From positions 459,071 through 523,070 of the forward strand of contig OZ244719.1 of NCBI GenBank assembly GCA_965219095.1: a DNA stretch of 64,000 nucleotides. Direction: 5' to 3'. The DNA is from Bdellovibrionales bacterium. GTDB lineage: Bacteria; Bdellovibrionota; Bdellovibrionia; Bdellovibrionales; UBA1609. Below are positions 3,646-42,094 of this stretch, in pieces (position 1 is the stretch's first letter; the number at the start of each line of letters is the position of its first letter). A program made the translations under genes and the position numbers. The notes under the pieces were generated by a model. It had not been told where the DNA came from. It saw only the letters and a list, made by a program, of their open reading frames with translations, and did not search any database.

Positions 3646-3647
3646 TT

Positions 3648-25122: not shown

Positions 25123-25226
25123 ATCTTTTTTATGAAAGAACGTTAAGTTAGTTTCTTAACAGCCCTTGACTTCTACGAGGAGGATGTTTCTTAGATGCTT
25201 TTGCCCACAGATTCTCGGGAGGAGCC
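25123..25226 (+). mobile_element. Solo chimeric IS end (IS66-type terminal motif plus ISL3 right inverted repeat)
   Basis: Near-identical to 27811-27919 and ends in CCACAGATTCTCGGGAGGAGCC. Confidence 0.6.
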
Positions 25227-25930: not shown

Positions 25931-25933
25931 AAA

Positions 25934-26347
25934 ATGGCGAAAAAGAAGAGAAAAAAGAAACCGGCTGTTTCAAAGCCAATTGAAATTTATAAACATAAGA
26001 GTAAAAGAAAAAACAATCCTCATGTTGGAGGAGTCACCTCTAAAAGAGAAAGTCCAAAAGTTAAAGCTAAAAAATATCAGTATGACTCTCATTTAGATCC
26101 GCTACTACAGTGGGCTGGTAAAGCTGAGCGGACTTCCTTTGAAGTGCCAAGTGTATCCCTTCATGTTCATGAAAAAATTGATCCAAGAAGCATTATTGAA
26201 ACTGTAAGAAATAGAAATTCTATAGATTACGAGCAACTTTCTCTTTTTCAGAGGATGTTCCATTTCTCGGTGGAATTATTAGAGGGCGATTTCATGTTTA
26301 AGCGACCTTTCTTTGTTTTGCAATCATTTTTTCTAAGTTTTCTTTAA
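25934..26347 (+). pseudogene. N-terminal fragment of a DNA methyltransferase-like gene (type III Mod-like), truncated
   Basis: YQYDSHLDPLLQWAGKAERTSFEVPSVSLHVHEKIDPRSIIE resembles, from memory, the N-terminus of large N6/N4 methylases. Similarity stops at about 26250, where a 91-bp repeat and then an ISL3 end begin. Confidence 0.4.
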
Positions 26348-26353
26348 AGTTTT

Positions 26354-27919
26354 GGCTCCTCCAGGGAATCTGTGGGTAAAAAGTAGCTAGAAATCCCCAA
26401 AAAAGCTCATATTAGCCAAAGCAAGAGTAAGATATCCTGTCTTGTATTTTTGAGTTCTTTAAGGCCTTACTGGCCTCTATCGCCGCTGGCGATTGAACTC
26501 AAAAACATTCATTTTATTTGCTGTATTACATTAAAATCTTAAAAAAGAAGCACCTACTTCCCAGATGCCTTAAAATGTTATTCAAAAAAAAAAAAACAAA
26601 GGAGGGAAGAGATGCTTTTGAAGACTATACTAAATGATTGTTTAAAATGGAAGTCTTTTGTGTATGGAGACATTTATTTTTCAAAAGATAGAAAGTCAAT
26701 TAATGTTCCTATTAAGGCTCGTAAAAATGGCCAAGTTCTTTGTAATGTTTGTAAGAAGCCCTAGTGTATGACACCAGTAAATCATCACGGGACTTTGAAT
26801 CCCTTCCTATTTTAAGTTACAGGGTGTTCTTTGTTTATACTGTAAGAAGAGTCAATTGTCCTTGCTGTGGGGTAAAAGTTGAACATTTACCTTGGGCTGA
26901 TGGTAAGAAGAGTTTAACGATCTTTTACATGAAGTACTTAGCTGACTGGTGTCGTCACCTATCTTGGAAAGAGGTTTCTTGTAAGTTTCAGGTCAGTTGG
27001 AATCAGGTCTATGCTTCAGTGGAGTGGGTTGTAGAGTATGGTTTAAAACAGAGGGTTTTAGAGGGGATATATGCTATAGGAGTCGACGAGATACAATGGA
27101 AAAAGAACCATAAGTATCTCACCTTAGTCTATGAAATAAGCAAAGAAAGTGTTCGTTTGCTATGGATAGGAGAAAAAAGAACAGAGGAGAGTTTCAACAA
27201 GTTTTTTGATTTGCTAGGAGAGAAGTCAAAAGATATACAGTTTGTGTGTTCTGATATGTGGAAGCCCTATTTAAAAGTTATAAAGGAAAGGGCAAGTCAA
27301 GCTTTGAATATATTAGATCGCTTTCATATTGTAGCAAAACTCAATAAAGCTTTAGATGAAGTGAGAGCCTCAGAACATAGAAAAATGAAAGAAGATGGCT
27401 GTCAACCACTTTTAACAAAAGCTAGATGGCCTTTGTTAAAAAATGCAGAAAATTTAAAATCTTATGAGAAAGTAAAATTAAGGCATTTAATACAGTACAA
27501 CTTAAAAAGTATCCGCTGTTATCTTTTAAAAGAAGACTTCCGACAGTTATGGACCTATGTTTCACCAACTTGGGCTGGGAAATTTATAGACAGTTGGACG
27601 AAACGAGTCATGCTTTCAAAAATTGAACCCTTAAAGAAAGAAGCAAAAACCATACGAAGACATAAAACTCTTATCCTTAATTACTTCAAAGCTAAAAAAA
27701 CCTTCTCCTCAGGGATTGTAGAGGGTTTAAATGTAATAGTCGCAACTTGATCTGACAGTTACCCTTTCTGGGTTGATAAAAAACTGTCTGTCAGTTTGCG
27801 TTCTGTTCAATCATCTTTTTTATGAAAGAAAGAACGTAAGTTGGTTTCTTAACAGCCCTTGACTCCTACGAGGAGGATGTTTCTTAGATGCTTTTAACCA
27901 CAGATTCTCGGGAGGAGCC
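26354..27919 (+). mobile_element. Degenerate ISL3-family element
   Basis: Left IR GGCTCCTCCAGGGAATCTGTGGG and right IR CCACAGATTCTCGGGAGGAGCC. The transposase frame is broken by TAG at about 26762 and diverges from intact copies after GIVEGLN (about 27732). Confidence 0.8.
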
Positions 27920-27926
27920 GATATTT

Positions 27927-29258
27927 TTATGAAGTTGAAGTTTCAGCCAAAGCATCAATCCAATTATTAATATATCTAGCTTTGCTTTGAATTACATGAG
28001 ATTCAGCCAAACCTTTGATTTCTTTAAGTTGATTCACAAGTTTGTCAATGTCTTTTTTACGAACTTCCTCTCTTTCCTTTAGCATACATAACAAAAAGTG
28101 AAAGCGTGCCTTTTTTGCTGCAGCAGGAGTTTGTACCTCTCTATTTGATTTCTTACTTTTACTAGAACGAGTCTCTCCAAAGTTTTTAAAGTTATTAAGA
28201 TCATCTTTGATTACACCCTTACATATTGCACAATCACAAATTTTTTGAAAAAAATCATGGTGAGTATTGATATGAAGATTTTCAAATAATAGCTCTATCT
28301 CAGGAATTCCAAATTTTCCATGCAATGGTGGAAAGTAATAATTTATAACTGGAGTCCCTCCCCCTAAAACAGGCATAATATTTTTTTTAGAACCATAGCC
28401 TACACCGTGAGAAACACTTGTCATGCCAAATTTAGATAGAAGGTAAGAGAAATACCCTCCATGCCTATTAAATACTTCAAGCCCGTTTTCCTTATATTTT
28501 TCAACTAGTCTGCGAAATGAAGAAAGATAGTTAGCACTTCTTTCGCTTTCATCAAAGTCATTTATCCATAGATAAACCCCTTTGAAACCATTTCCCAGCT
28601 TTAAAATGGCATTAATAAAATTAGAGTCTAATAAAAGATCATAATCGAAACAGAGACTTAGATATAAATCATTAGAGTATGAAAGAGAATCTTGACGGAT
28701 TTTTTGATATATATTAATCCAGAGATCTTTTCGCTTTTTATCTATAAAAAAATAAGGCGTGAAAATTATTTTTGGCATTGAGAGGTCATTTGCAAAAGAA
28801 GCTGTTTCTTCGTCTTCTCGTAAGATATTTTTAATTCGATTATTTTGATACTCAATTACAGATTTACAAATATCTTTTCGTTTTATATCGCCATCTAAGT
28901 CCTTCAAAGTAATGGCCTTACTATTTTCAACAGCATCACTAAAGCTATTACCTAATTTTAAAGCTAATTTTTTATATGAAGCTTTAATTTCAAATCCTTT
29001 TTTAGTTTTAGATTTTAACCATTGAAGATCAGAAATGAGTTGCCCATCATGCGAATAGTATTCGCCAAAAGAGTAGGTCATAGGATCAATAAGATAATCT
29101 CTATTATTTTCTTTGCAATGCTTTATTATTAAACTTGCAACGGCATTAGGAGTCATCTCTATTAAGTTTCCGCTAAAGGTAACCCCATCGAAAAATCGAA
29201 GAATCTTATCAAAATAATCTTTTTCTGAGTGACTACCATATCTTAAAAAAATATTCAT
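27927..29258 (-). CDS. Uncharacterised 443-aa protein with a TGT/DpdA-like CxCxxC...H motif
   Basis: C-terminal CDCAICKG...ARFHFLL resembles the zinc site and following R-x-(Y/H)-L-x-H-L helix of tRNA-guanine transglycosylase-type enzymes. Last gene of four overlapping genes. Confidence 0.35.
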   Translation of the reverse strand: MNIFLRYGSHSEKDYFDKILRFFDGVTFSGNLIEMTPNAVASLIIKHCKENNRDYLIDPMTYSFGEYYSHDGQLISDLQWLKSKTKKGFEIKASYKKLALKLGNSFSDAVENSKAITLKDLDGDIKRKDICKSVIEYQNNRIKNILREDEETASFANDLSMPKIIFTPYFFIDKKRKDLWINIYQKIRQDSLSYSNDLYLSLCFDYDLLLDSNFINAILKLGNGFKGVYLWINDFDESERSANYLSSFRRLVEKYKENGLEVFNRHGGYFSYLLSKFGMTSVSHGVGYGSKKNIMPVLGGGTPVINYYFPPLHGKFGIPEIELLFENLHINTHHDFFQKICDCAICKGVIKDDLNNFKNFGETRSSKSKKSNREVQTPAAAKKARFHFLLCMLKEREEVRKKDIDKLVNQLKEIKGLAESHVIQSKARYINNWIDALAETSTS

Positions 29259-29671
29259 TTTTTTCTTATTCCTTGAGCTTTCTTAATAGATTCAGTTTTA
29301 TATCTCATATTTATCACTTTAGATTTTGAAGGTTTCAATGTTATTCTGCAGTGTCCAGATGAATCAACAGCAATGACACCCACTCCAAATGGTTGAAGTT
29401 CTTGCAAAATTTTCTTGTTAATTTTCGTTTTAGGCATCGCTATGTAAACATAGTCAGAACAAAGCTGGTATATAAGTGCTTGTTGTAGAGCTTTTTTCCA
29501 TTTTATTAATTTTAATTCAACAGACACTGCTTCCATATCCTTAGAGTAAGTAAATAAATCTATATTATACCTATAGAAACTCAACTCTTTACAAGGAGGA
29601 TTAACATATTTGTTTTTTAAAAAACGAAAAACAGGTGTTAAAAGCTGAGCTTCCTTACTAAAATCCAACAT
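29255..29671 (-). CDS. Small PD-(D/E)XK (RecB-like) nuclease-fold protein
   Basis: NIDLFTY...AVSVELKLIKWKKALQQALIYQL carries D...E-x-K...QxxxY. It overlaps both neighbouring genes. Confidence 0.45.
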   Translation of the reverse strand: MLDFSKEAQLLTPVFRFLKNKYVNPPCKELSFYRYNIDLFTYSKDMEAVSVELKLIKWKKALQQALIYQLCSDYVYIAMPKTKINKKILQELQPFGVGVIAVDSSGHCRITLKPSKSKVINMRYKTESIKKAQGIRKK

Positions 29672-30245
29672 TTTTTTCCTCCATATCTCTTAATTTATTC
29701 TCTAAATAGAGTATGTAAACCATTGAACATATTCCGATCATAAAAAATACAGCACTAAAAATAAGAGGATAACATAATATATATCTATCCAGATTATTTA
29801 CATTTTTCTCGTAGAGTGCCATTAAACACAGAATAATGAATTCTAGACCAGCAAGAATTAAGGATAGATATTTTAGAAGGCGTGAATAAATCTTCCACTT
29901 CCAGTATGCAGTTTTTATTTCACTATACTGTTTAAAGAAAGTATTTTTTTTCTCTAAATAATCATCTAGCCAATTCTTAAAGGCTTCACTCTCAGCAGGA
30001 TTTTCCATGCCTTCTATGTACTTAAGACCCTCATCCTTTTCAACATATACATTAGGAATAGGTTTTAATAGCTTGGTAAGTTCTTCTGCTATTTCACCTG
30101 TTATTGAGTTTTTTATATTTAATATCGAACTATAAATGTATTCAAAAAAATCTTTTTTTCTTTCACTAAATTTAAAAAAATAGATAAGATAGGCTGTTAA
30201 AAGAAAACCATGAATCCATGTAATAGTTCCATAACTCAAAATCAA
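29658..30245 (-). CDS. Membrane protein with three predicted TM helices
   Basis: Hydrophobic stretches ITWIHGFLLTAYLIYFF, YLSLILAGLEFIILCLMAL and PLIFSAVFFMIGICSMVYILYL. Confidence 0.5.
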   Translation of the reverse strand: MILSYGTITWIHGFLLTAYLIYFFKFSERKKDFFEYIYSSILNIKNSITGEIAEELTKLLKPIPNVYVEKDEGLKYIEGMENPAESEAFKNWLDDYLEKKNTFFKQYSEIKTAYWKWKIYSRLLKYLSLILAGLEFIILCLMALYEKNVNNLDRYILCYPLIFSAVFFMIGICSMVYILYLENKLRDMEEKNVGF

Positions 30246-30799
30246 AACCCTCTTTTTAAAACTTGCTTTTTAACCTCAGATTCAGTTGTCATACCAGGGT
30301 ATTTCTTATAAACATAGTAAAGCAAATCACGAAGAGAATATTTACTAAAATTAGATTTAATTTTTCTAATCTTATTAAGAGTCGGTTGATGCTCTTCAGA
30401 GTTAAGCATGCTTTGAATTTTACTTCTGCCTTTTTCCGTAAGTTTAAATCTTTTTTCAACATAACTATCAGAGTAAGAACTATCATCTTCCTTTCCAATT
30501 AAATCTTCAAATTTTATTTCAACTGATTCAAACGAAGTACTTTCACCCACAACTTCACTCTTGATATAACCAAGGTTTTCTAAAAACTCTAAGGAATCAT
30601 AAATCTTTGATGAAAAAGGCCCTGCTTTATAGGGTTCAAACTTAAAGCCATCATCTAGGGCTTGAACTTCTTCTTCAGTTTCTAATAAATAGAGAAATTT
30701 TTGAAGACGAGTTGCCCCACCTAGTTTACCTTGAAGACTTGAACCCTCAGCATCTAATCCAATCATGCACAAAATTAAAGATTTTGTGTTCATACTCAT
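30242..30799 (-). CDS. Panacea/DUF4065 (SocA/GepA-like) domain protein
   Basis: ATRLQKFLYLL...FEPYKAGPFSSKIYDSLEFLENLGYI resembles the LQKLLY...W.YGPV...Y pattern. Start taken at MSMNTK; the ORF track allows 30853. Confidence 0.45.
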   Translation of the reverse strand: MSMNTKSLILCMIGLDAEGSSLQGKLGGATRLQKFLYLLETEEEVQALDDGFKFEPYKAGPFSSKIYDSLEFLENLGYIKSEVVGESTSFESVEIKFEDLIGKEDDSSYSDSYVEKRFKLTEKGRSKIQSMLNSEEHQPTLNKIRKIKSNFSKYSLRDLLYYVYKKYPGMTTESEVKKQVLKRGF

Positions 30800-31941
30800 A
30801 AGTTCAGACCCCTCATAACTAAACTGTATCCCATAATGCAGAATAGGCAACAAATTAAACCGGTGACTGATGATAGAAGCTATGCAAGTAGCCCAGCCAA
30901 ATCTAACAACAGTTAGTACACTGTAAAGCTATAAAATCAATATACTTTGAACTCCAAATCTAATGGCCGAACCTACAAATGTATAAATTATGTGTTGTTT
31001 TGCGTTAGGACTTCCTATGATAAAGCTAAAGGTTGCTATCACAAGACCAATCACCGAAATAAGGGGGCAAAATCACATTGTGAGCCTTGATTTGATATCG
31101 ATAAGGGAAGATTCAAGGCTTGCAAGCCGGCTTTTCAAAGAAGCCATAAAATAACTCCTGCTAGAAACACCGTAAAAAAAAGTCGGTTGTCTGCCCTATC
31201 CAAGCTTAAATTTCTCTTATAATTTTTCTTAGAGGGGGATTTTAGAAGAAATCCTAAAGGAGGCTCTGGGGACTTTAAGAGAAAATTGACTATCCGCAGA
31301 AACAGGAGAAGTCCACTTTTGCTACTGAGCAACGATTTGCGACGCTTATTGTTGATCTTGAGGTATGGATGGAATCAAAAGTTCTTTGGATTAGTGAGTT
31401 AAAGGCTTTATTAGAAAAATTCGGAAATCCTAGGCTGTAGCTAATTTTATTGGTGCTAGTGAAGCGTTTGTCCGGAAAAACGTCCGAATTTCGGACATTA
31501 AAAAGCAAAAAAAATAATTTCAAAAAAATATTAAAAAAATCCCTAATTATTGCTATGCTTTCCTAAAAAGAAGGAGACAAATTGCCAACACTTGATTTTA
31601 GAGGAAAGTCTATGCAAAAAATTATGAAGAAAAAAATTGTGGGAAAGCCATTGTTTTCGCATCAACTTGTTTTGAGAAGGCAAAAGAACTTTCTCAAGAA
31701 AGCATTACTTTATTGTCAACTTCCATTCGCTATCCATAGAATAGTAGGATCTTAATGCATTTAAAAGAATTTCAAGAATCTATTTTAGAAAAGCTAGATA
31801 ATTACTTAGATGCTCTTAAATATGAATATAGGGAAGAGTTAGACATAAAAGAGGTAAAAAAAGGCAAAAGCTACCAACTAGAGGAATACTTACAAAAAAT
31901 ATGGAGCAAGTTTTGAAAAGAGGGTTTTGATTTTGGAACGT

Positions 31942-32997
31942 ATGATAAAGCAATATTTTTTCTTATTCCTTATCCTAGTTTTTATTGTTTTAATTATTTT
32001 GCTTCCGTTTTGGTATGAGGATGTAATAAAAAGCTATTTTAAAATAGATGGCAACAATATCTCTAAGTGGGAAGTCATCAAGAGCTTAGGTTATGCTATT
32101 GGCGTAGTGGCTCTTCTTGCACAAATATCAATTTCTAGTCGCAGAACAGATGCCTCAGAAGAGTCAAATTTAAATCAACGTTACCATAACGCTATCGATC
32201 ACTTATCGAGAGAAAATACAACAGCTAGGATTGGTGCTATTTATAACTTATATAATATATCAAAATCTTCAAGAGCTTATTGCAGAGTAATTTTTGATAT
32301 ATTTTGCACACACCTAAAAGGAAAAGGCAATAACTTTGAAATCAGAAAGGAAGAAAAGCAATTGATTGTTGATAAGTTATTTCGAGCCAGAAAAGAAGAT
32401 AGAGTTTTGAGTAATCCTCAAAAAGTAGAACTTCAAAATATAGACTTTACAGATATAAATTTTGAAAAAGCATTTTTGAGAGAAGCAAAATTTATAGGAA
32501 CTAATTTAGAAAGTTGTTCTTTTAAAGAAGCAGACCTAACTGAGTCATGCTTGCCAGCAGAATTAAAAGGGGTTAAAAGCATGGAGAAAGCAATATTGAA
32601 TAAAACGGAGTTCAAATCTGGTAGTATTCTTAGAGGCCTTATCATGAATAACGGAAAGTGGAAAGATGCAAAGATTTTATATAGCGACTTGTCAAATGCA
32701 AAGTTAGAAAATGTGGATTTAACGAGAACAAAATTAACAGGAACAAAGTTAGAAAATGCAAATTTAAAAGGGGCAAATTTAAAAGGGGCAAATTTAAAAA
32801 AGGCTACCTTGGAAAATGTTGATTTAACAAAAGCAGATCTTTCGTATGCCAAGAACTTAACTTTTAATCAATTGGTTGAGGTGAGTAGCTTGCACGGTAT
32901 TATCGGATTAGATGAGAAAATTGAAAGGAAGTTAAAGACAGAAAAACCAGAGCTTTTTCAAAAAAAGCAAGAAAATATAAAGGAGGACGCAAAATGA
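31942..32997 (+). CDS. Membrane-anchored pentapeptide-repeat protein
   Basis: N-terminal TM segments (FFLFLILVFIVLIILLPFW, LGYAIGVVALLAQI). C-terminal repeats AKLENVDLTRTKLTGTKLENANLKGANLKGANLKKATLENVDLTKADLSYA. ATGA overlap with the next gene. Confidence 0.75.
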   Translation: MIKQYFFLFLILVFIVLIILLPFWYEDVIKSYFKIDGNNISKWEVIKSLGYAIGVVALLAQISISSRRTDASEESNLNQRYHNAIDHLSRENTTARIGAIYNLYNISKSSRAYCRVIFDIFCTHLKGKGNNFEIRKEEKQLIVDKLFRARKEDRVLSNPQKVELQNIDFTDINFEKAFLREAKFIGTNLESCSFKEADLTESCLPAELKGVKSMEKAILNKTEFKSGSILRGLIMNNGKWKDAKILYSDLSNAKLENVDLTRTKLTGTKLENANLKGANLKGANLKKATLENVDLTKADLSYAKNLTFNQLVEVSSLHGIIGLDEKIERKLKTEKPELFQKKQENIKEDAK

Positions 32998-33740
32998 GTA
33001 AAAATAAAATAAAAATCAATGGGAGAGAACAAGACATTCAGTGTGGTTTAATTAACGGGGAGAGTTTATATTCGCAACTTAATATGTCATGTGATGGAGA
33101 ACGGTTATTTTTAGATGTTCAAAGTGAAGTTGATATTCCAATTAACAAAGATGATTATATTGTTATATTAGGCAAAGAAAGCTTTGTAACTGGAAAATCT
33201 AAAATAGACGATAATCCTGCTTTAAAAAAGCAGATATCTATTAAAGTAGATGACAATCCTATCGAATTATCTAAACCCAAGATAACAGGAAAAGAAATTA
33301 AAGATAGTTGTAAAGATTCGCTACCCAATAGCAATCTTTACATAGACTTATTAAATATTCCTGATCAGCTAATCAAAGATGATTTTATGTTAATTATTAA
33401 CCCTGATCCTAAAAGCCCTGAGCATTGCTTTATAATAGTGCCTGTGTCAGATGATAATATTATTGATACTGAAGAATGTGCCAAACATAACAAAAAGCCT
33501 CCTAAAAAACAAGATAAGTATAAAATAAAAATAGATGGTCAAAAATATATTGCTCCTGCTTGGCAATTATCAGGTAAAGAAATATTAAAATTAGCAAATA
33601 AAGAATGGCAACAGTTTAGCTTGCAGCAAAAATTTAAAGGAGGAGAAAGAAAAGTTATAGGACCTGAGTCTAAAGTAGATTTTTCTACACCAGGTGTTGA
33701 ACGCTTTGAAACTGTTCCAAAAGAAGCACAACAAGGATAA
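32994..33740 (+). CDS. Multi-ubiquitin (three beta-grasp repeats) protein ending in Gly
   Basis: Repeats KIKINGREQDIQCGLINGESL, ISIKVDDNPIELSKPKITGKEI and KIKIDGQKYIAPAWQLSGKEIL. The C-terminus ...PKEAQQG lies directly before the stop codon. Confidence 0.65.
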   Translation: MSKNKIKINGREQDIQCGLINGESLYSQLNMSCDGERLFLDVQSEVDIPINKDDYIVILGKESFVTGKSKIDDNPALKKQISIKVDDNPIELSKPKITGKEIKDSCKDSLPNSNLYIDLLNIPDQLIKDDFMLIINPDPKSPEHCFIIVPVSDDNIIDTEECAKHNKKPPKKQDKYKIKIDGQKYIAPAWQLSGKEILKLANKEWQQFSLQQKFKGGERKVIGPESKVDFSTPGVERFETVPKEAQQG

Positions 33741-33742
33741 AT

Positions 33743-34123
33743 ATGGATTTTGAATTGCCAGAAGATGACGTAGGTTTTCTCAACAATTCGTTTGAAGGTA
33801 GATGGAGTACTATAATTAACTCTACAGAGCAGGGTATAATTATTAGGAACTATTCTTTACCAGAGGGTTATGATCCATCTGAGGTAAAAGTAATGATTTT
33901 AATTCCACAAAATTATCCTATGGCTGCCCTTGATATGTTTTATTTATGCCCTGGGACATTTAAAAAAAATGGTCATAACATAGAACAATTAAGTGATGAA
34001 TCTCATTTTGATAAGCAGTGGCAACGTTGGTCAAGACACTACGAATGGCAGGCTGGGACCAATAATATTGCAATACATTTGAAATTTGTTGAAAATGCTT
34101 TAATAGACGAGTTAAAAAAATGA
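33743..34123 (+). CDS. Prokaryotic E2-like (Prok-E2 family E-like) protein
   Basis: 126 aa with IPQNYPMAALDMFYLCPG, which holds the candidate catalytic Cys. Its position between the Ubl and E1 genes fits. Confidence 0.55.
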   Translation: MDFELPEDDVGFLNNSFEGRWSTIINSTEQGIIIRNYSLPEGYDPSEVKVMILIPQNYPMAALDMFYLCPGTFKKNGHNIEQLSDESHFDKQWQRWSRHYEWQAGTNNIAIHLKFVENALIDELKK

Positions 34124-35496
34124 AATACTCTCTCTCTTTAAACAACGAACAGCATCAGAAGCTAAAAAATCATCTGCTTATAGATCATTTGGAATCTGTT
34201 GCATTGATCCTTTGCCATCAATCTAAGAGTACAAGTCAGATAAAGCTAATTGCCTCTGAAATTATTTTAATTTCACATAGCTTATGCAAAAGAACAAAGG
34301 CCAATATTACTTGGCCAGTTGAAAAATATTTTACTCCATTGCAAATTGAGAGAATGGACAAAGAAAAATTATCTTTAATGACGATACATAGTCACCCCAA
34401 CGGATATAACAATTTTTCAAATTTAGATAACAATAACGATAATATCTTATTTAGATCAGTAAATAATTGGTTTAATGACGAGAGACCAAATGGTTCGCTT
34501 GTAATGTTGCCAAATGATCATCTCTTTGGAAGAGTTGTTAATAAGGCTGGGGATTTTACTCCATTATCACACATTAGTATTGCAGGAAGTAATATAAAGA
34601 TTTTAAAGCATAAAAAGGAAAATAGCAATGTACCGAAGTTTAGTAAACGAGTCGCTCAAACTTTTGGAAAACACACACTTTCTACTCTAAAGCAATTGAA
34701 TGTTGGTGTCGTTGGATGCTCTGGAACAGGAAGTATTATTATTGAGTTGTTAGCTCGTAACTGCATTGGAGAATTAGTTATTGTCGATCCTGATATAGTT
34801 GAAGAAAAAAACTTAAATAGGATATTAAATACTGCATCGAGTGATGCCAATAGGACAAACCCTAAAGTTAAAGTTCTAAAAAGAGCAATTCAAAAGTTAG
34901 ATATGGGAACGGAGGTATCTGCTTACCAATCTACTACATCTGATAGAAAAGTCATATCGGCATTAAAAAACTGTGATATTTTATTTGGTTGTGTTGATTC
35001 AGCTATTGGTAGATACCATCTTGATTGTGTGTCATCTGCTTATATAATTCCTTACTTTGATATTGGAGTTCGAATTGATGCAGATAAAAAGGGAAATATC
35101 TCTCAGGCAATTACAGTTGCCCATTATATTGAACCAGGACAATCGAATCTTTTGTCAAGGGGGGCCTATACTAGTGAACAAGTGAGGGTGGAGAGTTTAA
35201 AGATACACAACCCAACTCATTATGAACAACAAAAAAAAGAAGGCTATATTTCTGGAATAGATGAAGATCAACCTGCAGTAATATCAGTTAATATGCAAGC
35301 TGCGTGTATGTCATTTAATGACTTTATAGCACGTATTCATAATTATCGGCTAGATAGTAATTGTGATTTTGCTATTCAACAAATGAGTTTAACCCATGGA
35401 TACTATAGACATCAAAAAAACAAGCAAGGACTTCATCCACTCTTTGCTAAAAATTTTAGCAAAGCCGATCAATCTGATCTATTGAAATTGATATGA
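34120..35496 (+). CDS. JAB/JAMM deubiquitinase-like domain fused to ThiF/E1-like adenylation domain
   Basis: JAMM motif HSHPNGYNNFSNLD. Rossmann motif VGVVGCSGTGSIIIELLARNCIGELVIVDPDIVEEKNLNR. Confidence 0.75.
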   Translation: MKYSLSLNNEQHQKLKNHLLIDHLESVALILCHQSKSTSQIKLIASEIILISHSLCKRTKANITWPVEKYFTPLQIERMDKEKLSLMTIHSHPNGYNNFSNLDNNNDNILFRSVNNWFNDERPNGSLVMLPNDHLFGRVVNKAGDFTPLSHISIAGSNIKILKHKKENSNVPKFSKRVAQTFGKHTLSTLKQLNVGVVGCSGTGSIIIELLARNCIGELVIVDPDIVEEKNLNRILNTASSDANRTNPKVKVLKRAIQKLDMGTEVSAYQSTTSDRKVISALKNCDILFGCVDSAIGRYHLDCVSSAYIIPYFDIGVRIDADKKGNISQAITVAHYIEPGQSNLLSRGAYTSEQVRVESLKIHNPTHYEQQKKEGYISGIDEDQPAVISVNMQAACMSFNDFIARIHNYRLDSNCDFAIQQMSLTHGYYRHQKNKQGLHPLFAKNFSKADQSDLLKLI

Positions 35497-35837
35497 TAAG
35501 ATTATTTTTTGAAAAAATAAAAATATTTCTATATAACCTTTGGAAACCAAGCTATAGAACTGTCTGGACAGAAAATTTTCCAGAAAAACTCAAGAAAAGA
35601 ATAGTTTATATTATTGGAAATAAAAAACATCCGTTTCAAGTTGTATTTTTGTGTCCTAAAAATTGTAATAAAAAAATTTTTCTTAATATATCAAAACAAC
35701 ACAATAAATTTGAACGTTGGAAGCTTATTGAACATAAAGATGGAACAGTCTCACTTGTTCCATCTATTTACATGAAAACTCTTGATTGTGACTGTCATTA
35801 TTGGTTCAAAAGAGGACGCATCAATTGGATTCGATGA
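35493..35837 (+). CDS. DUF6527-like zinc-binding protein
   Basis: VFLCPKNCNKKIFLN...VPSIYMKTLDCDCHYWFKRGRINW, i.e. CPxxC...CxCH. It overlaps the E1 stop. Confidence 0.55.
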   Translation: MIRLFFEKIKIFLYNLWKPSYRTVWTENFPEKLKKRIVYIIGNKKHPFQVVFLCPKNCNKKIFLNISKQHNKFERWKLIEHKDGTVSLVPSIYMKTLDCDCHYWFKRGRINWIR

Positions 35838-36061
35838 AGTAAATTAACCAGCTCATATTTTTAATCAGTGTAGTAGTTGTAACTTATCCCTATCAATCTT
35901 TCCAGAAAGACTTTTTTCAGTAACTTAACTTTGTCTAACAGACCTCTTTAGTGACTTTTTTACGATGTGTTCGTGATTGGTTCATGATTTTTTAAAAACC
36001 AAGAGCAGCAAAAGTTTGCTTTTTTCCTCAGAACAAAGTAAGTAGTCGCACGAGAAACTCT

Positions 36062-36454
36062 TTACGACAAGTTAAAAAGAAAAAACTGATCAGCTATTTC
36101 TATATCATTTCCTTTTCTTTCGGGATCAGGAAAAAACTCAGGCACTCTATCTCTTACTTGATAATAAATATGTCTATGAGATTCTTGTTTTTTAAGCTCA
36201 CTTTTATAATAACCTTCATCAAAAAGTTCTTTAAGTTCATAAAATTCATTTTCTAAAACATTTGGCGTTTCATTTTCTTGAAACACTATAGAGTAAGACT
36301 CAAAAAACTCTAAAAGTTGAAGTTCAATAATCTTTGAATCAATTTCTTTTTTATCAGCAAAGCTAAAATCCACACCTGAGCCTCCTGCCCATATAAAACT
36401 TTTAAAAGAAAAAGTAAAGAATAAAACTGTTATTATGAATAGGTTTTTAGCCAT
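36062..36454 (-). CDS. Small secreted hypothetical protein
   Basis: N-terminal signal-like sequence MAKNLFIITVLFFTFSFKSFIWA. Confidence 0.4.
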   Translation of the reverse strand: MAKNLFIITVLFFTFSFKSFIWAGGSGVDFSFADKKEIDSKIIELQLLEFFESYSIVFQENETPNVLENEFYELKELFDEGYYKSELKKQESHRHIYYQVRDRVPEFFPDPERKGNDIEIADQFFLFNLS

Positions 36455-36995
36455 GATTTTCTCCTTTTGGTTTTATGTTAGACGTTTTTATTATGCCTAA
36501 ATTTATGTTATAAATAGATTTTTCAGATTTTTCTTCATTTTTTAAAGAGTTCTCTGAGCTTTCAAGAAGTTCAGAGATAATTCTGTCAAAATCCTGTTTA
36601 AATTTATTCATAGCTTCTTTGCTACAGGCCACTGTATAATTTGAGATTTTTTCTATAGTTTCGGGTTTTATTTGAGCTAAGAGGTATCTTGTTTTTAAAA
36701 TATGTTGATGTATGGCCTGATTTTTTGTGATTTCTTTTTTTGTGATGACAAAGTTTCTCTTCCCAGCTTTATAAAAACTCCCTTCTTTGACAAGAAAGCC
36801 TAACTCCTCTAATCCGTCAATAGCATCTGTAGCTTCTTCTAAGGTTACAGAGAAGGTTTCTGCTACGACTTGTGGTGAAGCGGGAAGGTTTTCTATTGTG
36901 AGGTGAGCATGAAGTTCTGGCCAAAAAGGATCACAAAGCCAATTTTCTAAAAGCATGTTATCTCTTTCTTGAATGCTTTGTTTTACTTTTAACAT
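36447..36995 (-). CDS. DUF4423/TIGR02147-like winged-helix protein (C-terminal part?)
   Basis: VTLEEATDAIDGLEELGFLVKEGSFYKAG pattern. It overlaps the upstream HTH ORF, so the two may be one split regulator. Confidence 0.35.
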   Translation of the reverse strand: MLKVKQSIQERDNMLLENWLCDPFWPELHAHLTIENLPASPQVVAETFSVTLEEATDAIDGLEELGFLVKEGSFYKAGKRNFVITKKEITKNQAIHQHILKTRYLLAQIKPETIEKISNYTVACSKEAMNKFKQDFDRIISELLESSENSLKNEEKSEKSIYNINLGIIKTSNIKPKGENHG

Positions 36996-37420
36996 AATTT
37001 AGCCTGCTTTCTTTTATACCTCATCTCTTGCAGGTGTTCTTTTAATCTTGTGCGTGAGTTTTCTATGGTTTTATTTTTATCAGCACAACGTTCACTAGAA
37101 GCTATAACATCTTTAAGAATCGATCTTTTATCATGTTTTGAAAGCCCCTTTAAAATAAGCTCCATGTCTTCTCCTATAGGGGTATCGCTTTGCTCTCTTC
37201 TTTCTAACTCATCTCTCACAATAGCTCTTAAGTTAATGCCTGCTAGTTTAAGGACTCTCATAAAATCATAAGAGTTTATATGACTTTTACCGTTTAGGAA
37301 AGTGCTTATAGTATTCTTATTGAGTTCTAAAAGACGAGCAGCTTCAAGAACTCCAATGCTATTATAAGTCAATAATGAATCTAAGTTATTTAAAAAAGCA
37401 AAATCTCTGTTGATCTTCAT
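36989..37420 (-). CDS. HTH DNA-binding protein
   Basis: LELNKNTISTFLNGKSHINSYDFMRVLKLAGINL. Divergent from the T4CP gene. Confidence 0.5.
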   Translation of the reverse strand: MKINRDFAFLNNLDSLLTYNSIGVLEAARLLELNKNTISTFLNGKSHINSYDFMRVLKLAGINLRAIVRDELERREQSDTPIGEDMELILKGLSKHDKRSILKDVIASSERCADKNKTIENSRTRLKEHLQEMRYKRKQAKLC

Positions 37421-37446
37421 AAGAAAAAAGTTTCAATATACTTTTT

Positions 37447-39042
37447 ATGATTTTCTTTTTAGGGGGAGTGATTGCACATAAAGAGATTAAAAAAGCTCCT
37501 TATGCTTCTAAAAGGCTTGCGAAAAACTATAAATTTATAATTTGTATTTTTATTGGCCTTGTCATTTTAGAGACTCTTTTTTATCTACTTGTTTTAGACC
37601 TCTTGTTTTTCTGGTTAGCACAGCTTTTTGTATTTTGGATCTTTCAGGCTTTTTTACTTTTTATAACTTGTAATTTTTGGCTTAAGGATGAGAACATAAA
37701 ATCCAAAAAACGCATTACAGTGGATCATTTGGAGGGAGAAGAAGTTGATTTCAAAACTTTTGAGAAGGCTCTTGAGTCTAAAGACTCAGCTCCTATAGGA
37801 GCCAATTTTGTCAAAAAAGAGCTTGTAAGTTTACCTGTCAGTTCTAGAACAGAGCATTTACTTGTTACAGGAGCGACAGGCACAGGAAAAACAACCTTGA
37901 TGATGAATTTACTGAGGCACAGTTTTTTGCATAAACACCCTCTTGTGATCCTTGATCCTAAGGGGGAAATAAAGGACATAGAGATGATAAAATTCCTTTT
38001 TTGTGAGTTAGGAAGAAAAGAGGAAGACTTTAAGCTTTTTTCTCTTGCACAGCCTGAAAAGAGCTTGTCCTACGATCCTTTGAAGTATGGAACAAGTGAA
38101 CAAGTGAGGTCGAAACTGATGCTTGGCCTTAGTTTTACTCATGATTATTATGCTTCACAAGCCAGTCAGTATCTTTCTATCTTGCTTTCTTGTTTTGAAG
38201 CTCTAAAAAAGAAAATGAATCTTAAAGAATTAAAACAAGCCCTCAACAACTCTCACAAAGAATTTATGGAGAAAAAAGAGCTGGAAGGGATGGAAGATGA
38301 TGTAGCTTCTTTATCTCAAATTAAAAAAGAAGACCTTGCAGGATTAAAAGCTCAGGTTGAGATTTTAAACTCTAGAGAGTTTTCTCATCTTCTTTCTTCT
38401 TCAAAGTGTCAAATTGATTTAGTTGAGATTTTGGAAAAAGGTCAGGTGGCTTATTTTCAACTGAACACAAACGGATATGGTGATTTTGCAAGACGTTTAG
38501 GCAAAATGATTGTGCAAGACTTGAAAGTTATAAGCAGTCAAATTCATGCAGGACAAATAGCACCTAAGTTTAACTTTGCAGGGATATTTATTGACGAATT
38601 TGGCTCTTTTGCAACAAGAGATTTTAGCGACCTTCTTAAAATGATCAGAAGCTCTAACATAGGGGTTCATCTTTTTTGTCAAGGCTTGGCTGATTTAAAA
38701 GCTGTATCTTCTGAGTTTTCGGATCAGATTTTAGGTAACACTGCTTATAAGCTGATCTTCCGTCAAGATGTCCCTCAAGACTGTGAAACATGGTCTTCTG
38801 TTTGTGGAACTATAGAAGATAAAGCTATGACCTTTCAAGTGTCATCACAAGAGATGTTAAGCGAGTTTGAAAAAACAGGCTTAGGTTCACTTTTTAACAC
38901 CAAAAAGATGAAAGTGGATTTTGATGTTTTTAAGTCTTTAAAAAGAGGTCAAGCTCTTCTTATTGATAAACTTCAAAACAAGCAAATTTTACTTCAAGTT
39001 TACAATGCTAAAGAAAAAAAGAAGAAAGGCTTGGAGAAATGA
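37447..39042 (+). CDS. Type IV coupling protein-like ATPase (TraD/VirD4/TrwB family), the only intact copy
   Basis: N-terminal TM helices, Walker A VTGATGTGKT and Walker B-like FIDEFGSFAT. 531 aa. Confidence 0.75.
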   Translation: MIFFLGGVIAHKEIKKAPYASKRLAKNYKFIICIFIGLVILETLFYLLVLDLLFFWLAQLFVFWIFQAFLLFITCNFWLKDENIKSKKRITVDHLEGEEVDFKTFEKALESKDSAPIGANFVKKELVSLPVSSRTEHLLVTGATGTGKTTLMMNLLRHSFLHKHPLVILDPKGEIKDIEMIKFLFCELGRKEEDFKLFSLAQPEKSLSYDPLKYGTSEQVRSKLMLGLSFTHDYYASQASQYLSILLSCFEALKKKMNLKELKQALNNSHKEFMEKKELEGMEDDVASLSQIKKEDLAGLKAQVEILNSREFSHLLSSSKCQIDLVEILEKGQVAYFQLNTNGYGDFARRLGKMIVQDLKVISSQIHAGQIAPKFNFAGIFIDEFGSFATRDFSDLLKMIRSSNIGVHLFCQGLADLKAVSSEFSDQILGNTAYKLIFRQDVPQDCETWSSVCGTIEDKAMTFQVSSQEMLSEFEKTGLGSLFNTKKMKVDFDVFKSLKRGQALLIDKLQNKQILLQVYNAKEKKKKGLEK

Positions 39043-39047
39043 GAAGA

Positions 39048-39282
39048 CACCCAACCCAACCACTCTTTTATAACCTATCACTACTGTGTACCTGTGGTGA
39101 CGAAAGTGAGTTAGGGTGGTCAAATCTTAAACCCTTTCAACAAGTCGTAAGAATGGGCGTAATAAGGCCCTTTGATAAGGTCTTGTTTTCATTGGGTTTA
39201 GGATTTGACCACCCTAACTCACTTTCTAATCTCTCTGGTAGATGTGGTGTGTGATGTGTGGTGTGAGTGGTTGGGTTGGGTA
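39048..39282. repeat. Nested long palindrome (module 3 version), oriT-like
   Basis: Outer arms CACCCAACCCAACCACTC (39048-39065) / GAGTGGTTGGGTTGGGT (39265-39281). Perfect 25-bp inner arms GAAAGTGAGTTAGGGTGGTCAAATC (39102-39126) / GATTTGACCACCCTAACTCACTTTC (39202-39226). Confidence 0.8.
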
Positions 39283-39441
39283 GTAGGTTGGTGGAAAAGG
39301 AAAGGAAAGAAAATTTTTTTAAAGCTAGTCTTAAAAAAATTTTCTGTTTGTTAAATCTGCGGACGAACTTTTATAAGCTCTCCGCACTATCCTCTCTTGA
39401 AGCTCAAGAAAGGATGTAAATCAATAAGGAAAGGAGTAGAA

Positions 39442-39669
39442 ATGAAACTAAAAACTACAATTTATGACGCACTCTCAGTCAGAGCTTATAAAGACTCTCA
39501 GGGAAACGAAAAAGTGGACTACCAAAGAATAGGTGTAGCCTTTGGTTTAAAGAACAAAAACGGTTTTTCTTTGAAGCTCACAAGCTTGCCTGTCTCAGGG
39601 GAGCTTGTGGTTATAGAAAGAATACCAAAAAAAGAGCAGAAAAATGATACAGAAGAAATGCCCTTTTAA
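39442..39669 (+). CDS. Small hypothetical protein (module 3 only)
   Basis: ATG behind AAGGAAAGGAG. Encodes MKLKTTIYDALSVRAYKDSQGNEKVDYQRIGVAFGLKNKNGFSLKL... Confidence 0.4.
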   Translation: MKLKTTIYDALSVRAYKDSQGNEKVDYQRIGVAFGLKNKNGFSLKLTSLPVSGELVVIERIPKKEQKNDTEEMPF

Positions 39670-39734
39670 AGGCTTAGAATACCAAATGAGGGAGCTTTAA
39701 GCTCCCTCGTTATATTTTGAAAGGAGAAATAAAA

Positions 39735-39995
39735 ATGAATAAAAAAGAATTGAAACCAATCAAGAAAAGTAGTAGTTTAGAGAACACTATTCGCCCTCAA
39801 AAAAAGGGCCTGTTCTTTGACAATTTAATAACTATTGAGGAGCTTTCAGAAAATTTAGGTTTATCTAAGAAGACTTTACAAAATTGGGTTTCTTTAAGGA
39901 AAATCCCTTATGTAAAAATAGGCCGAAAGGTTTATTTTAGGTCTTCTCGCTTACAGCAGTGGATTGAACGAAAGGAGTTCAAATCATGTCTGTAA
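39735..39995 (+). CDS. Excisionase-type HTH DNA-binding protein (module 3)
   Basis: MNKKELKPIKK...IEELSENLGLSKKTLQNWVSLRKIPYVKIGRKVYF. Confidence 0.7.
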   Translation: MNKKELKPIKKSSSLENTIRPQKKGLFFDNLITIEELSENLGLSKKTLQNWVSLRKIPYVKIGRKVYFRSSRLQQWIERKEFKSCL

Positions 39996-41188
39996 CTAAA
40001 ATTAAAAGAAAAAAAAAGAACGTCTATCAAGCTCAAGTGTATGTCAGAGGAGTGAGGCTTTCGAGTAAAGTTTTTGAAAACAAAACTCAAGCTTACATTT
40101 GGCATGATAGAGAAAAAGATCGCCTTGAAAAAGGTGAAACTATAGAAGAAAAAGAACTTAAAGAATTGCTTTTTTGCGATTGTGTAGAAAAGTACATCAA
40201 AGAGTATCTGCCTAAACTGAGAGCTTCCAGCCAGAGAAAAATCTTATTGAATCTGAAAAATCTTTCAGTTAACAGCCCCTTAAATAAAGTCAAGATGTTA
40301 GACTTAAAGGCAAAGGAGATAAGCCTTTGGATTTCTTGGTTTCAAAAGAAAACTAAGAAGTGTAGGCAAAGACAGAGTTTTAAAACAGAGTTTAGGCGAC
40401 TTGTAGCTGTTCTAAACTGGTGGAGAAATTATGTTGACCCAAATTTTGTTGTTCCTGTAGTGAAAATGCATAGAGATATTTGCTATGAGACAACTCAAAA
40501 ACTAAGACGACCTGACTACTTTGCTAGACCAGAAGAAATACAGCTTTGGCTTCAAAAGCTTCAGAAAATATCTAACCCTGTTTATTATAGACTGGCAAAG
40601 TTTATGATTTTAACAGGAGCTAGAGTGAGTGAAGCTTGTGGGCTTTTATGGAAAGAAGTTGTCTTTGAAGAAAAATTTGTACGTGTGGTAAGGACAGCTG
40701 ATTGGGGAGGTAACAAAATAACTCTCTGTGAAGACACTAAAACGAAAGCATCTAACAGGCTTTTGGTTCTTCCAGAGAGACTTGTGGAGTTGTTAAGGGT
40801 TATGAAAAGTGAGTCTCCCGAAAATCCCTTAGTCTTTCATTCAAGAGAAGGTGAAATGGTGTCTTATACAAGCATTCGCTGGGCTTTTGATAAGTCCTTT
40901 AAGGCCTGCAATCTTCCTTGGAGAGGGACTCATATTTGCCGTCATACTTATGCCACAATGGCACTTATGGCGACAAAAAGTCTTTCCGCTGTGCAAGCAA
41001 GTCTTGGGCATACAGATCAAGCTATGACTCAAAGGTATGCTAAAGCGGTAGCTTTAATAAATTCTGATATGGCAGAAAGAACGGCTAGCATGTACGAATC
41101 GAAATCACTTACAAAATCACTTACGCACCCTCAAAAGACCCTAAATGAGTCCTCATTAAGGATAAGGGAAAGTGATTCTAGCAGTTGA
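39986..41188 (+). CDS. Tyrosine recombinase/integrase (module 3)
   Basis: GARVSEACGL, WRGTHICRHTYAT and TQRYAK. More diverged in the N-terminal half than int1, int2 and int4. Confidence 0.9.
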   Translation: MSVTKIKRKKKNVYQAQVYVRGVRLSSKVFENKTQAYIWHDREKDRLEKGETIEEKELKELLFCDCVEKYIKEYLPKLRASSQRKILLNLKNLSVNSPLNKVKMLDLKAKEISLWISWFQKKTKKCRQRQSFKTEFRRLVAVLNWWRNYVDPNFVVPVVKMHRDICYETTQKLRRPDYFARPEEIQLWLQKLQKISNPVYYRLAKFMILTGARVSEACGLLWKEVVFEEKFVRVVRTADWGGNKITLCEDTKTKASNRLLVLPERLVELLRVMKSESPENPLVFHSREGEMVSYTSIRWAFDKSFKACNLPWRGTHICRHTYATMALMATKSLSAVQASLGHTDQAMTQRYAKAVALINSDMAERTASMYESKSLTKSLTHPQKTLNESSLRIRESDSSS

Positions 41189-41265
41189 ATTGTAAAGATT
41201 TAAAACCACTTCAAAAAGCAAAATGAATGGGTTTTTTTAGCTTGGATTTTGTGAGTTAAGAAAAG

Positions 41266-41295
41266 AAAAACCCCTCCAAAAAAGGGAGGGGTTTT
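41266..41295. terminator. Hairpin terminator between int3 and cassette E
   Basis: AAAAACCCCTCC aaaaaa GGGAGGGGTTTT. Confidence 0.65.
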
Positions 41296-41314
41296 AAAGT
41301 AGAGTTTAAGTATT

Positions 41315-41752
41315 TTATGGTAGTACACTCAAACTTTTCTCATGATTAATTTGCCAGTTGGAATTTGTCGAATCCCCGTTTCCTTCAGCACAAGCTATGA
41401 ATTCATCACCTGCAGAGTTTAGCACACAGGTTGCCCCTATAATCTTAGCAACTACCGTAGCGGCAGTTGATGGGTGACATTTATCCGTACAAGCAGTTTC
41501 TTTAAATCCAACAGCGTAGTGGCGTGTTCCAGAAGGTTCCTCAAATCCTATATTAGCTAGGACGTCTGAATATTTATCACCTTCATAAAGGTAGGCTTTT
41601 TCTGCTGTATAAAGAGCCCCTAAGTTAGTTTTAGCTTCACTACTTCGTGCTTTTTTTCTAAACCCATCGAATGCAGGAATGGCAACTGCTGCAAGAATTC
41701 CTATAAATTGATTTGTAAACTTTTGTAAGTTTGCAGAATCACTAAAAAACAA
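41315..41752 (-). CDS. Pilin cassette E: PilA-type pilin lacking the leader and processing site
   Basis: MFFSDSANLQKFTNQF|IGILAAVAIPAFDGFRKKARSSEAKTNLGALYTAEKAYLYE... The core starts at 41704 (minus). The upstream 48 nt are identical to cassette C. Confidence 0.7.
   Translation of the reverse strand: MFFSDSANLQKFTNQFIGILAAVAIPAFDGFRKKARSSEAKTNLGALYTAEKAYLYEGDKYSDVLANIGFEEPSGTRHYAVGFKETACTDKCHPSTAATVVAKIIGATCVLNSAGDEFIACAEGNGDSTNSNWQINHEKSLSVLP
41610..41704 (-). repeat. Conserved pilin 5' core, copy E
   Basis: Reverse complement of the core sequence. Confidence 0.85.
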
Positions 41753-42094
41753 AAAGAAAATAATAAATTAACCTACCCATCTATTCCCGAATGTTAAGAC
41801 TTTTCCCCTACATTGAACCTAGTTGATCACGACAAAATTCCGTACACGGACGCATATAAAAATCACGATAGTTCTAAAACAAACTTTAATTTCTTTTGTA
41901 CTTACTTTTGAAAGCCAGGATTTAATTGTTGTATTATCTCTAGCGACATCCTTTCTGGTGCTTTTTTATCTGGTACTTTCTTATTTTCCTGTTACGTTAC
42001 AGTAGGTTAGTGAGGGATATCGCAGTGAGGCCATTTGAAAGAAATTCTCTTAAAATCACTTGAAAAGAAAGTTTTTTTATATTATTATAATTGT

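Follow-up and report, generated by a model that had tools for sequence, protein, structure and literature searches.

Bacterial ubiquitination-like (Bub) systems, which were known as 6E/DUF6527 operons until they were renamed in two 2024 preprints from the Corbett laboratory, are the closest described relatives of a five-gene operon found in the genome of Bdellovibrionales bacterium (GenBank assembly GCA_965219095.1, contig OZ244719.1). The stretch of DNA that was analysed, hereafter called the window, comprises 64,000 nucleotides (nt; positions 459,071 to 523,070 of the contig, forward strand), and coordinates given without a locus designation refer to it. The operon occupies 31927/31942-35837 on the plus strand. 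Its last four genes almost certainly constitute a Type I Bub (formerly 6E.1/DUF6527) conjugation operon. Its head gene encodes a membrane-anchored pentapeptide-repeat protein (PRP), which is probably a co-inherited accessory subunit of this sub-lineage and a functional part of the system. The core system was already known; the new features are the conserved membrane-anchored PRP head gene and a ubiquitin-like protein (Ubl) that is encoded by a gene of its own and born in its mature form.

Type I Bub systems are defined as consisting of BubAB, a fusion of a Ubl and an E2; BubCD, a fusion of a JAB domain and an E1; and BubE, a DUF6527 protein (Ye, Gong, Chambers and Corbett, 2024; 10.1101/2024.11.21.623953). 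The Ubl, BubA, contains one to three beta-grasp domains and has a conserved C-terminal glycine (Ye et al., 2024). The family was shown structurally and biochemically, with in vitro and in vivo assays, to make Ubl-lysine conjugates, and crystal structures were determined for the Bub proteins of Citrobacter sp. RHBSTW-00271 (PDB 9ea4, 9eae and 9eav) (Ye et al., 2024). The intermediates of this pathway are oxyesters, involving a tyrosine in the crossover loop of the E1 (Y370 in Citrobacter) and a serine of the E2 (S333) together with H335 and D299 (Ye et al., 2024). The conjugates are stripped by Citrobacter BubE, a protease that has a Ser-His dyad and a C4 zinc site (Ye et al., 2024). According to the same authors, the targets and function of Bub are unknown, and no phenotype has been reported for any Bub operon.

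A second family, Bil (bacterial ISG15-like, BilABCD), shares with the window the combination of Ubl, E2, JAB and E1 on mobile or defence loci and the logic of attaching a Ubl to lysine. However, the E1 of Bil has an inactive and an active adenylation domain in tandem, along with a catalytic-Cys domain, and forms thioesters, whereas the E1 of the window has a single adenylation domain fused to JAB. Furthermore, the JAB of Bil is a separate protein and DUF6527 is lacking, whereas the window contains a JAB-E1 fusion and a DUF6527 protein. An anti-phage role has been demonstrated for Bil, but not for Bub. Membership of the window system in Bil was considered and rejected: its single ThiF domain (residues 178-332) is fused to JAB, and the crossover loop contains no Cys. 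PADLOC gave no system-level match; the ThiF part of BubCD matched only the E1 part of E1-E2 fusion models.

Organization of the operon and identity of its core genes

Start and stop codons of neighbouring genes overlap as ATGA at three of the four junctions (32994, 34120 and 35493); at the remaining one, between bubA and bubB, a gap of 2 nt gives TAA-AT-ATG (33738-33745). In order, and all on the plus strand, they encode PRP (31927-32997, with alternative starts at 31933 and 31942), BubA (32994-33740), BubB (33743-34123), BubCD (34120-35496) and BubE (35493-35837). An earlier note on this DNA had proposed a ubiquitin-like conjugation operon of five translationally coupled genes with these overlaps and this gap. 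The coupling was borne out by the list of open reading frames (ORFs) and by direct reading of the junctions; the nature of the operon by Pfam, PDB matches and catalytic residues; and all five domain assignments by Pfam, PDB sequence matches and AlphaFold models. The motifs quoted in that note, HSHPNG, GCSGTGS, DMFYLCPG and CPKNC...CDCH, are all present in the translations.

BubA is a triple beta-grasp Ubl (Ubl3). The protein matches Pfam Multi_ubiq at 8.3e-16, and its AlphaFold2 (AF2) model, with a pLDDT of 93, contains three beta-grasp units at residues 3-67, 81-151 and 176-242. The best Foldseek matches of this model were the multi-ubiquitin structures 9cd2 and 9d5a, and BubA 9ea8_B was also matched. 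The sequence ends in ...KEAQQG with the stop codon right after Gly248, as the earlier description of a Ubl ending in Gly (...EAQQG) had it. G248 is invariant in 30 homologues, and the AQQG motif is common to several loci. BubB, the E2-like protein, matches Pfam Prok-E2_E at 5.9e-28 and Citrobacter BubB (9eae_C) at E=1.5e-16, and the QRWSRH motif is identical in the two. Its catalytic residues are conserved across 86 relatives (S97 and H99 100%, D64 98%). C69, which lies in DMFYLCPG, aligns to a Tyr in Citrobacter, and its column is variable (D, S, Y, C, H, F) across the same relatives.

BubCD contains a JAB/JAMM domain (residues ~1-165) fused to an E1 adenylation domain. Pfam ThiF was matched at 1.7e-25, and Prok-JAB weakly, at 7.9e-4, below the gathering score. 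Citrobacter BubCD (PDB 9ea4) was matched at E=1.8e-62 over residues 5-418. In this alignment, E25, H90, H92, D103, R234 and Y376 correspond to Citrobacter E28, H91, H93, D104, R227 and Y370, and the JAMM residues, which also include S100, fall on the solved BubCD active site. None of the seven residues (E25, H90, H92, S100, D103, R234 and Y376) varies, either among 29 aligned homologues or among the 83 BubCD ORFs of the loci described below, and the crossover loop is without Cys in 81 of these 83. BubE is assigned as a DUF6527 serine protease from Pfam (PF20137, 1.8e-16) and from its conserved residues: among 77 relatives, conservation is 94-99% for each of C54, C58, C99 and C101 of the C4 zinc site, S91 and H102. 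Toward the N-terminus, the Cys residues are spaced as CxxxC in the window versus the CxCxC reported for Citrobacter. Of the earlier assignment of a DUF6527-like CPxxC...CxCH protein, the domain stood; the protein goes beyond a zinc ribbon of unknown role in matching a Ser-His protease with a C4 zinc site. BubE also carries a hydrophobic N-terminal extension (MIRLFFEKIKIFLYNLW), a feature described for the family, which points to a predicted affinity for the membrane.

The window thus resembles the Type I Bub system of Citrobacter in having the same four domain families in identical order, in keeping all the published catalytic residues (JAMM E/HxH/D, adenylation Arg, crossover-loop Tyr, E2 Asp/Ser/His, and BubE C4 and Ser-His), in encoding a Ubl3 BubA that ends in Gly, and in lying on a putative mobile element in a defence-gene setting. 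Judging from the residues that are essential in Citrobacter, the window system would be expected to carry out ATP-dependent conjugation via Tyr and Ser oxyesters. By homology, BubCD would adenylate Gly248 of the triple beta-grasp BubA, which would then be loaded onto Tyr376 in the crossover loop as an oxyester and handed on to Ser97 of BubB, aided by His99 and Asp64. BubB would transfer BubA onto lysines of target proteins, and BubE, through Ser91-His102 and its C4 zinc site, would remove the tag. No catalytic cysteine would take part anywhere in the pathway. The earlier note had taken E1 and E2 cysteines to be essential, which does not apply because the system is a Bub operon with conserved Tyr and Ser residues: the family uses the crossover-loop Tyr and the Ser/His/Asp of the E2. 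Its remark that the multi-Ubl/DUF6527 type had been little characterised is likewise superseded, as this type is the Bub family, for which structures and conjugation assays have been published (Ye et al., 2024).

Separate bubA and bubB genes and the role of the JAB domain

In the published systems, BubA and BubB are made as a BubAB pre-protein that is cleaved by JAB. In contrast, bubA and bubB are separate genes in the window, and BubA ends at its mature Gly. The distribution of this arrangement was followed in 80 species-representative loci found with a BubCD alignment; the tabulation comprises 82 loci, as it includes the window and the loci L001 and L002 and leaves out one locus without BubA. 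The two genes were found to be split in 61 of the 82 loci and fused in 21. BubA ends exactly at QQG in 14 of the 82, and otherwise has a tail of 1-5 residues. The split of BubA and BubB is accordingly a variant within the family and does not exclude the window from Bub.

Since BubA of the window is made with a mature ...AQQG end from a separate gene, the JAB domain is not needed for its maturation. Nevertheless, the JAMM site is intact in all of these loci, including those whose BubA needs no processing. Because the site is invariant even where BubA is encoded with a mature Gly, the JAB domain probably has a role besides cleavage of the BubAB pre-protein.

A membrane-anchored pentapeptide-repeat protein at the head of the operon

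The head gene is an addition to the published Bub gene set: unlike the described operons, the window begins with a translationally coupled gene for a membrane-anchored PRP. The protein matches Pfam Pentapeptide (PF00805) at 1.9e-24 and PF13599 at 1.6e-13. The AF2 model (pLDDT 87) consists of a membrane hairpin of two helices (residues 2-33 and 39-88), a helical domain (93-148), a beta-helix (~160-305) and short C-terminal cap helices; in the tabulated segment limits, the transmembrane (TM) hairpin extends over residues ~2-66 and the conserved helical domain over 67-150. The beta-helix is right-handed, shows a regular strand periodicity of five residues and is modelled with a pLDDT >90. Beyond the TM hairpin, the helical domain and the pentapeptide repeats, no further domain was detected in PRP by Pfam or AF2, and no HECT-like domain is present. 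That the beta-helix is cytoplasmic is our own inference, not the output of a tool, and is drawn from basic residues (..NRRAD..) located after the second membrane helix. Conservation is highest in the helical domain (62% identity), compared with 44-54% in the beta-helix and 41% in the TM hairpin region, and the number of beta-helix repeats varies across homologues.

The Foldseek matches of the PRP model include HetL, QnrB1, MfpA, AlbG and NleL, the last through its beta-helix (3sqv and 3naw; beta-helix only). QnrB1, MfpA, AlbG and EfsQnr, which are among the top structural matches, share the right-handed quadrilateral pentapeptide beta-helix with PRP. However, Qnr-type PRPs are soluble, acidic, dimeric DNA mimics, whereas PRP of the window is membrane-anchored, contains an extra helical domain and is basic: its repeat domain has a net charge of +4 and an isoelectric point of 9.0, and the charge ranges from -10 to +4 across the clade. 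A DNA mimic of the Qnr/MfpA type, at which the earlier note had hinted, was therefore rejected on account of the N-terminal TM hairpin, the basic repeat domain and a charge that is not conserved. Proteins with the same three-part architecture of TM hairpin, helical domain and pentapeptide repeats occur in cyanobacteria and sponge symbionts, where they are annotated as 'pentapeptide repeat-containing protein / YjbI'. They share the motifs ..NRRA.. and ..R(I/L)GAIY.L..I.. with PRP, and most are not located beside Bub genes.

Linkage of PRP to Bub operons

The earlier note did not recognise a PRP as a standard component of such operons, and neither Bub paper was found to mention pentapeptide, membrane partner or effector genes. 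The supplementary text of the Bub paper contains no 'pentapeptide' or PF00805 entry, and a literature search on pentapeptide repeats in connection with anti-phage defence or bacterial ubiquitin-like systems returned nothing relevant. PRP has nine full-length homologues with 39-60% identity, and every full-length homologue with a readable context lies on the same strand as, and immediately 5' of, a Multi_ubiq/Prok-E2_E/ThiF/DUF6527 set. Close homologues were read directly 5' of Bub operons with split BubA/B in five further distinct loci. Linkage of PRP to such operons in other genomes, which the proposal of a common operon presupposes, was thus found in the loci L001, L002, L003, L004, L075 and L096.

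In the window, PRP overlaps the start of bubA by 4 nt. The corresponding spacing is +9 nt in L001, -14 nt in L002/L009, -8 nt in L004 and +38 nt in L096, where BubA consists of 86 amino acids (aa); L003 contains a decayed copy interrupted by an insertion sequence, so that no spacing applies. The most distant pair, in L075 (PRP 26% identical, BubCD 45%, BubA a single beta-grasp), is separated by a gap of 2 nt (+2 nt). Four more PRP homologues are located on short contigs equal in size to contigs that carry BubCD or BubA, which makes their pairing a putative one. A metagenome scan with the PRP alignment yielded two short, uninformative contigs. On two metagenomic contigs, L004 (4238-8726) and L005, PRP-BubA-BubB-BubCD' is duplicated in inverted orientation, and BubCD is cut short in the middle; this is probably an assembly artefact.

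The pairwise identities of PRP and BubCD were found to be correlated (r=0.92, Mantel p~0.003, n=8), and remained so when L075 was left out (r=0.72, p~0.02). This correlation indicates co-inheritance, not repeated chance juxtaposition. PRP evolves faster than its partner, with identities of 39-61% versus 63-89% for BubCD.

The wider PRP family and the head position of Bub operons

The N-terminal module of PRP defines a family of 468 representative sequences, and pentapeptide domains were found in 78 of the 99 top matches. The Bub-linked PRPs form a small, distinct branch in it (~10 representatives at E<=1e-20); the family is regarded as older than this association, with one branch recruited to the operon. 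Distant TM-PRP relatives (24-27% identity) lie directly 5' of an N6_N4 DNA methylase gene in L007 (8001-13274), L008 (9741-12380) and L089 (9892-15172), and two of these loci also encode a ResIII helicase. These Type III restriction-modification (RM)-like operons come from sponge-microbiome assemblies of the same kind.

Several findings weigh against a dedicated role of PRP in Bub. PRP is present in only 2 of the 80 surveyed Bub loci and is thus dispensable for Bub operons generally. The closest relatives without PRP, L010 (4570-5741) and L097 (3600-4738), whose BubCD are 63-64% identical, carry instead a divergent pair of HTH_3 and Peptidase_M78 genes, a regulator of the CapH+CapP type. Besides the relatives that precede N6_N4 methylase and ResIII genes in Type III RM-like operons, others (L090-L093) are found in ordinary or housekeeping cyanobacterial neighbourhoods; with such unrelated neighbours, the family must have functions independent of Bub. 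The co-divergence with BubCD rests on 8 pairs, 3 of which were paired only by equal contig size. The promoter and terminator calls are consensus matches only. As for a part in defence, the Bub authors observed no phage protection for any Bub operon that they tried.

The head position is occupied by other genes as well. A soluble family of ~170-235 aa (~180 aa, with an N-terminus like '..VIDTNIFIDL..'), unrelated to PRP, takes this position in 16 of the 80 Bub loci (L012-L019, L021-L025, L027, L032 and L034), ending 0-90 nt before bubA. This family has no Pfam match, and a by-eye guess that it is PIN-like was not confirmed by Pfam. Overall, Bub operons seem to have a variable slot for accessory genes at their head.

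What is the role of PRP?

The whole locus is best explained, with somewhat better than even confidence, as a Type I Bub system on an integrative mobile element, with PRP as a specificity or localisation module or a substrate. The narrower proposal about PRP itself, that it is a specificity or localisation module acting as an adaptor for charged BubB (BubB~BubA) or being the conjugation substrate, is tentative and falls a little short of an even chance. It is based on the tight coupling to bubA, the co-divergence with BubCD, the combination of a conserved helical domain with a variable beta-helix, and the predicted membrane affinity of BubE. In the arrangement envisaged, the two-helix hairpin would anchor the helical domain and the fast-evolving, length-variable beta-helix at the inner membrane, on its cytoplasmic face. 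As an E3-like adaptor, PRP would bring BubB~BubA to membrane-proximal targets; alternatively, PRP would itself be the dedicated conjugation substrate. In either case it would act together with BubE, whose hydrophobic extension also suggests the membrane. A precedent for a beta-helix as a ligase module is provided by NleL and SopA, HECT-like E3s of enteric pathogens in which a pentapeptide beta-helix is joined to ubiquitin transfer. However, the beta-helix of these proteins is fused to a HECT-like domain with an active-site Cys and they act on the ubiquitin of the eukaryotic host, whereas PRP is a separate protein that is alike in fold only; NleL, with its beta-helix N-terminal domain, would therefore serve as an analogy and nothing further. 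That PRP is a dedicated, fast-evolving substrate-recognition (E3-like) or sensor subunit, whose variable cytoplasmic beta-helix captures an invader or host protein at the inner membrane and presents it to BubB~BubA, is rather doubtful. A role of the system in defence or conflict is favoured by the neighbouring restriction-modification, toxin-antitoxin (TA) and integrase genes.

Other readings of PRP start from the same observations. The occurrence of the HTH_3 and Peptidase_M78 pair of L010 and L097 exactly at the position of PRP would fit a post-translational regulator or sensor that holds Bub inactive, or activates it on envelope perturbation such as phage adsorption or injection, and so fills the niche of CapH+CapP. 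According to the Bub paper, 39% of Bub operons carry CapW or CapH+CapP and 31% CapH+CapP; unlike these many operons, the operon of the window has neither beside it, and no such regulator adjoins the PRP-linked operons that were read. The membrane hairpin with its short external loop is also in keeping with a sensor. However, this alternative occupancy comes from a handful of loci, the gene is co-directional and translationally coupled, implying a stoichiometric co-production more typical of a subunit, and PRP has no recognisable sensor or signalling domain, its external loop being only ~20 residues long and poorly conserved. A regulator is unlikely. It is more improbable still that PRP is an independent passenger on the Bub transcript, either a stand-alone defence or anti-defence factor (for example, a DNA mimic such as Qnr/MfpA) or a generic accessory of the island. 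Such a passenger would agree with the breadth of the pre-existing family that combines the N-terminal module with pentapeptide repeats, with the distant relatives at the head of Type III RM-like modules in L007, L008 and L089, with the fold matches to QnrB1, MfpA and AlbG, and with the lack of PRP in most Bub operons. It is hard to reconcile with a position and coupling that are kept across loci whose PRPs are only 25-61% identical, and with a divergence of PRP that tracks that of BubCD. The basic beta-helix, with its non-conserved charge, speaks against an acidic DNA mimic, and the membrane tether is unlike known gyrase-protecting PRPs.

PRP might also be the effector of the system, in that conjugation of BubA to PRP, or the formation of Ca2+-dependent Ubl3 filaments on it, triggers oligomerisation of the hairpin and thereby membrane damage or growth arrest (abortive infection). 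Small TM effectors terminate many defence systems, BubA belongs to the Ubl3 class that was reported to form Ca2+-dependent filaments, and the operon contains no other effector-like gene. The beta-helix of the window is moreover rich in lysine (21 Lys in 148 residues), but this richness is not kept in the clade (7-23 Lys). The two TM helices are without conserved polar or pore-lining features, and Bub operons that lack PRP also lack a TM effector, so that an effector is no obvious requirement. This reading is very improbable. To return to PRP as a specificity or localisation module, Bub is a pathway that is solved structurally and orphan biologically, and the co-diverging PRP offers a concrete handle on its targets. 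PRP points to the membrane as the site of action of Bub, consistent with the hydrophobic extension of BubE. If PRP is a recognition subunit, it would be the first specificity factor of any Bub system and would give first access to the physiological targets of one; the TM-PRP family would then be a modular 'front end' reused by defence systems (Bub and Type III RM-like). If PRP is irrelevant to Bub, the locus merely adds another mobile-element copy to the known Type I Bub operons.

Start and upstream region of the operon

The start of PRP is ambiguous between TTG at 31927, TTG at 31933 and ATG at 31942. The Shine-Dalgarno-like sequence AAGAGGG (31918-31924) fits best with TTG 31933. The public-database entry for PRP (P0001) has 332 aa and starts within the first membrane helix; this version is probably too short. 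A promoter-like site, TTGTCA-18-TAGAAT, lies upstream of the operon on the plus strand (31713-31742). It stems from a consensus scan that found 33 promoter-like sites in the region versus 24.5 expected, which makes the evidence for this site weak. Between the site and the start of PRP lies an ORF of 53 aa (31755-31916, plus strand; MHLKEFQESILEKL...), which ends 10-25 nt before PRP. It has no Pfam match, and no homologue was found in any fetched locus. ORFs of 53 aa also precede PRP in L004-L006, and a leader shared with these was considered and rejected, since the ORF of the window is unrelated to them. The ORF is possibly a leader or a gene remnant, and its membership in the operon is putative.

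Genomic setting and distribution

The operon is carried by a putative integrative mobile element (23822-41707), whose boundaries are deduced from direct repeats of ~146 nt (families D3/D4) at 23822-23967 and 41562-41707. Pfam matches in the element include an ISL3 transposase (26764-27750), a T4CP/HerA-like ATPase (37447-39042) and a tyrosine integrase (39986-41188). The series of such repeats, ~146-292 nt long, has members at 15657, 23822, 41562 and 47558, the array spanning 15657-47703. The element is flanked by near-identical modules (99-100%) at ~20.2-23.5 kb and ~44.0-47.2 kb, each ending in a tyrosine integrase of 399 aa (22076-23275 and 45795-46994); a more diverged copy (73-92%) is present at ~38.9-41.1 kb, and a fourth integrase at 9786-11012. 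The region has the look of several integrative elements arranged in tandem, the middle one carrying the Bub operon. The window contains neither a tRNA nor any Rfam family, which leaves the attachment (att) site of the element without a tRNA to link it to.

RM and TA genes flank the PRP-Bub operons in L001, L002 and L075, which agrees with the published view of Bub operons in mobile or defence loci. The left end of the window (370-7088, minus strand) encodes a PLD-nuclease/SNF2 helicase (1091 aa) and an Eco57I/MmeI-type methyltransferase (1146 aa); genes of these types, together with VapBC pairs, are located directly 5' of the PRP-Bub operons in L001 (3588-7061) and L002 (1-6797). Just upstream of the Bub operon lies an overlapping cluster of four genes (27927-30853, minus strand) encoding proteins of 443, 138, 195 and 203 aa without Pfam matches. 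The 203-aa protein matches PADLOC PDC-M19A (1.6e-10), and the 138-aa protein weakly matches LmuC (0.0038). This cluster may be a second defence module in the same element.

More than 4,500 BubCD homologues were found. Plasmids carry such homologues too, 111 in number, of which half are conjugative, and none occurs in 50,697 phage records. The relatives of BubCD (L009-L088) come almost all from metagenome-assembled genomes of marine-sponge symbionts of many phyla, with hosts including Spongiihabitans, Porisulfidus, Poriferihabitans, Tethybacter, Latescibacterota, Nitrospirales and Bdellovibrionales. This distribution suggests extensive horizontal spread of the BubCD clade within the sponge habitat. 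Elsewhere in the window, short-period repeats with spacings of 21, 54 and 75 nt were observed at 16183-16514 and 42099-42442, inside the paralogous ORFs 16119-16994 and 42035-42847; these ORFs belong to the repeated element modules and seem to encode proteins with internal repeats.

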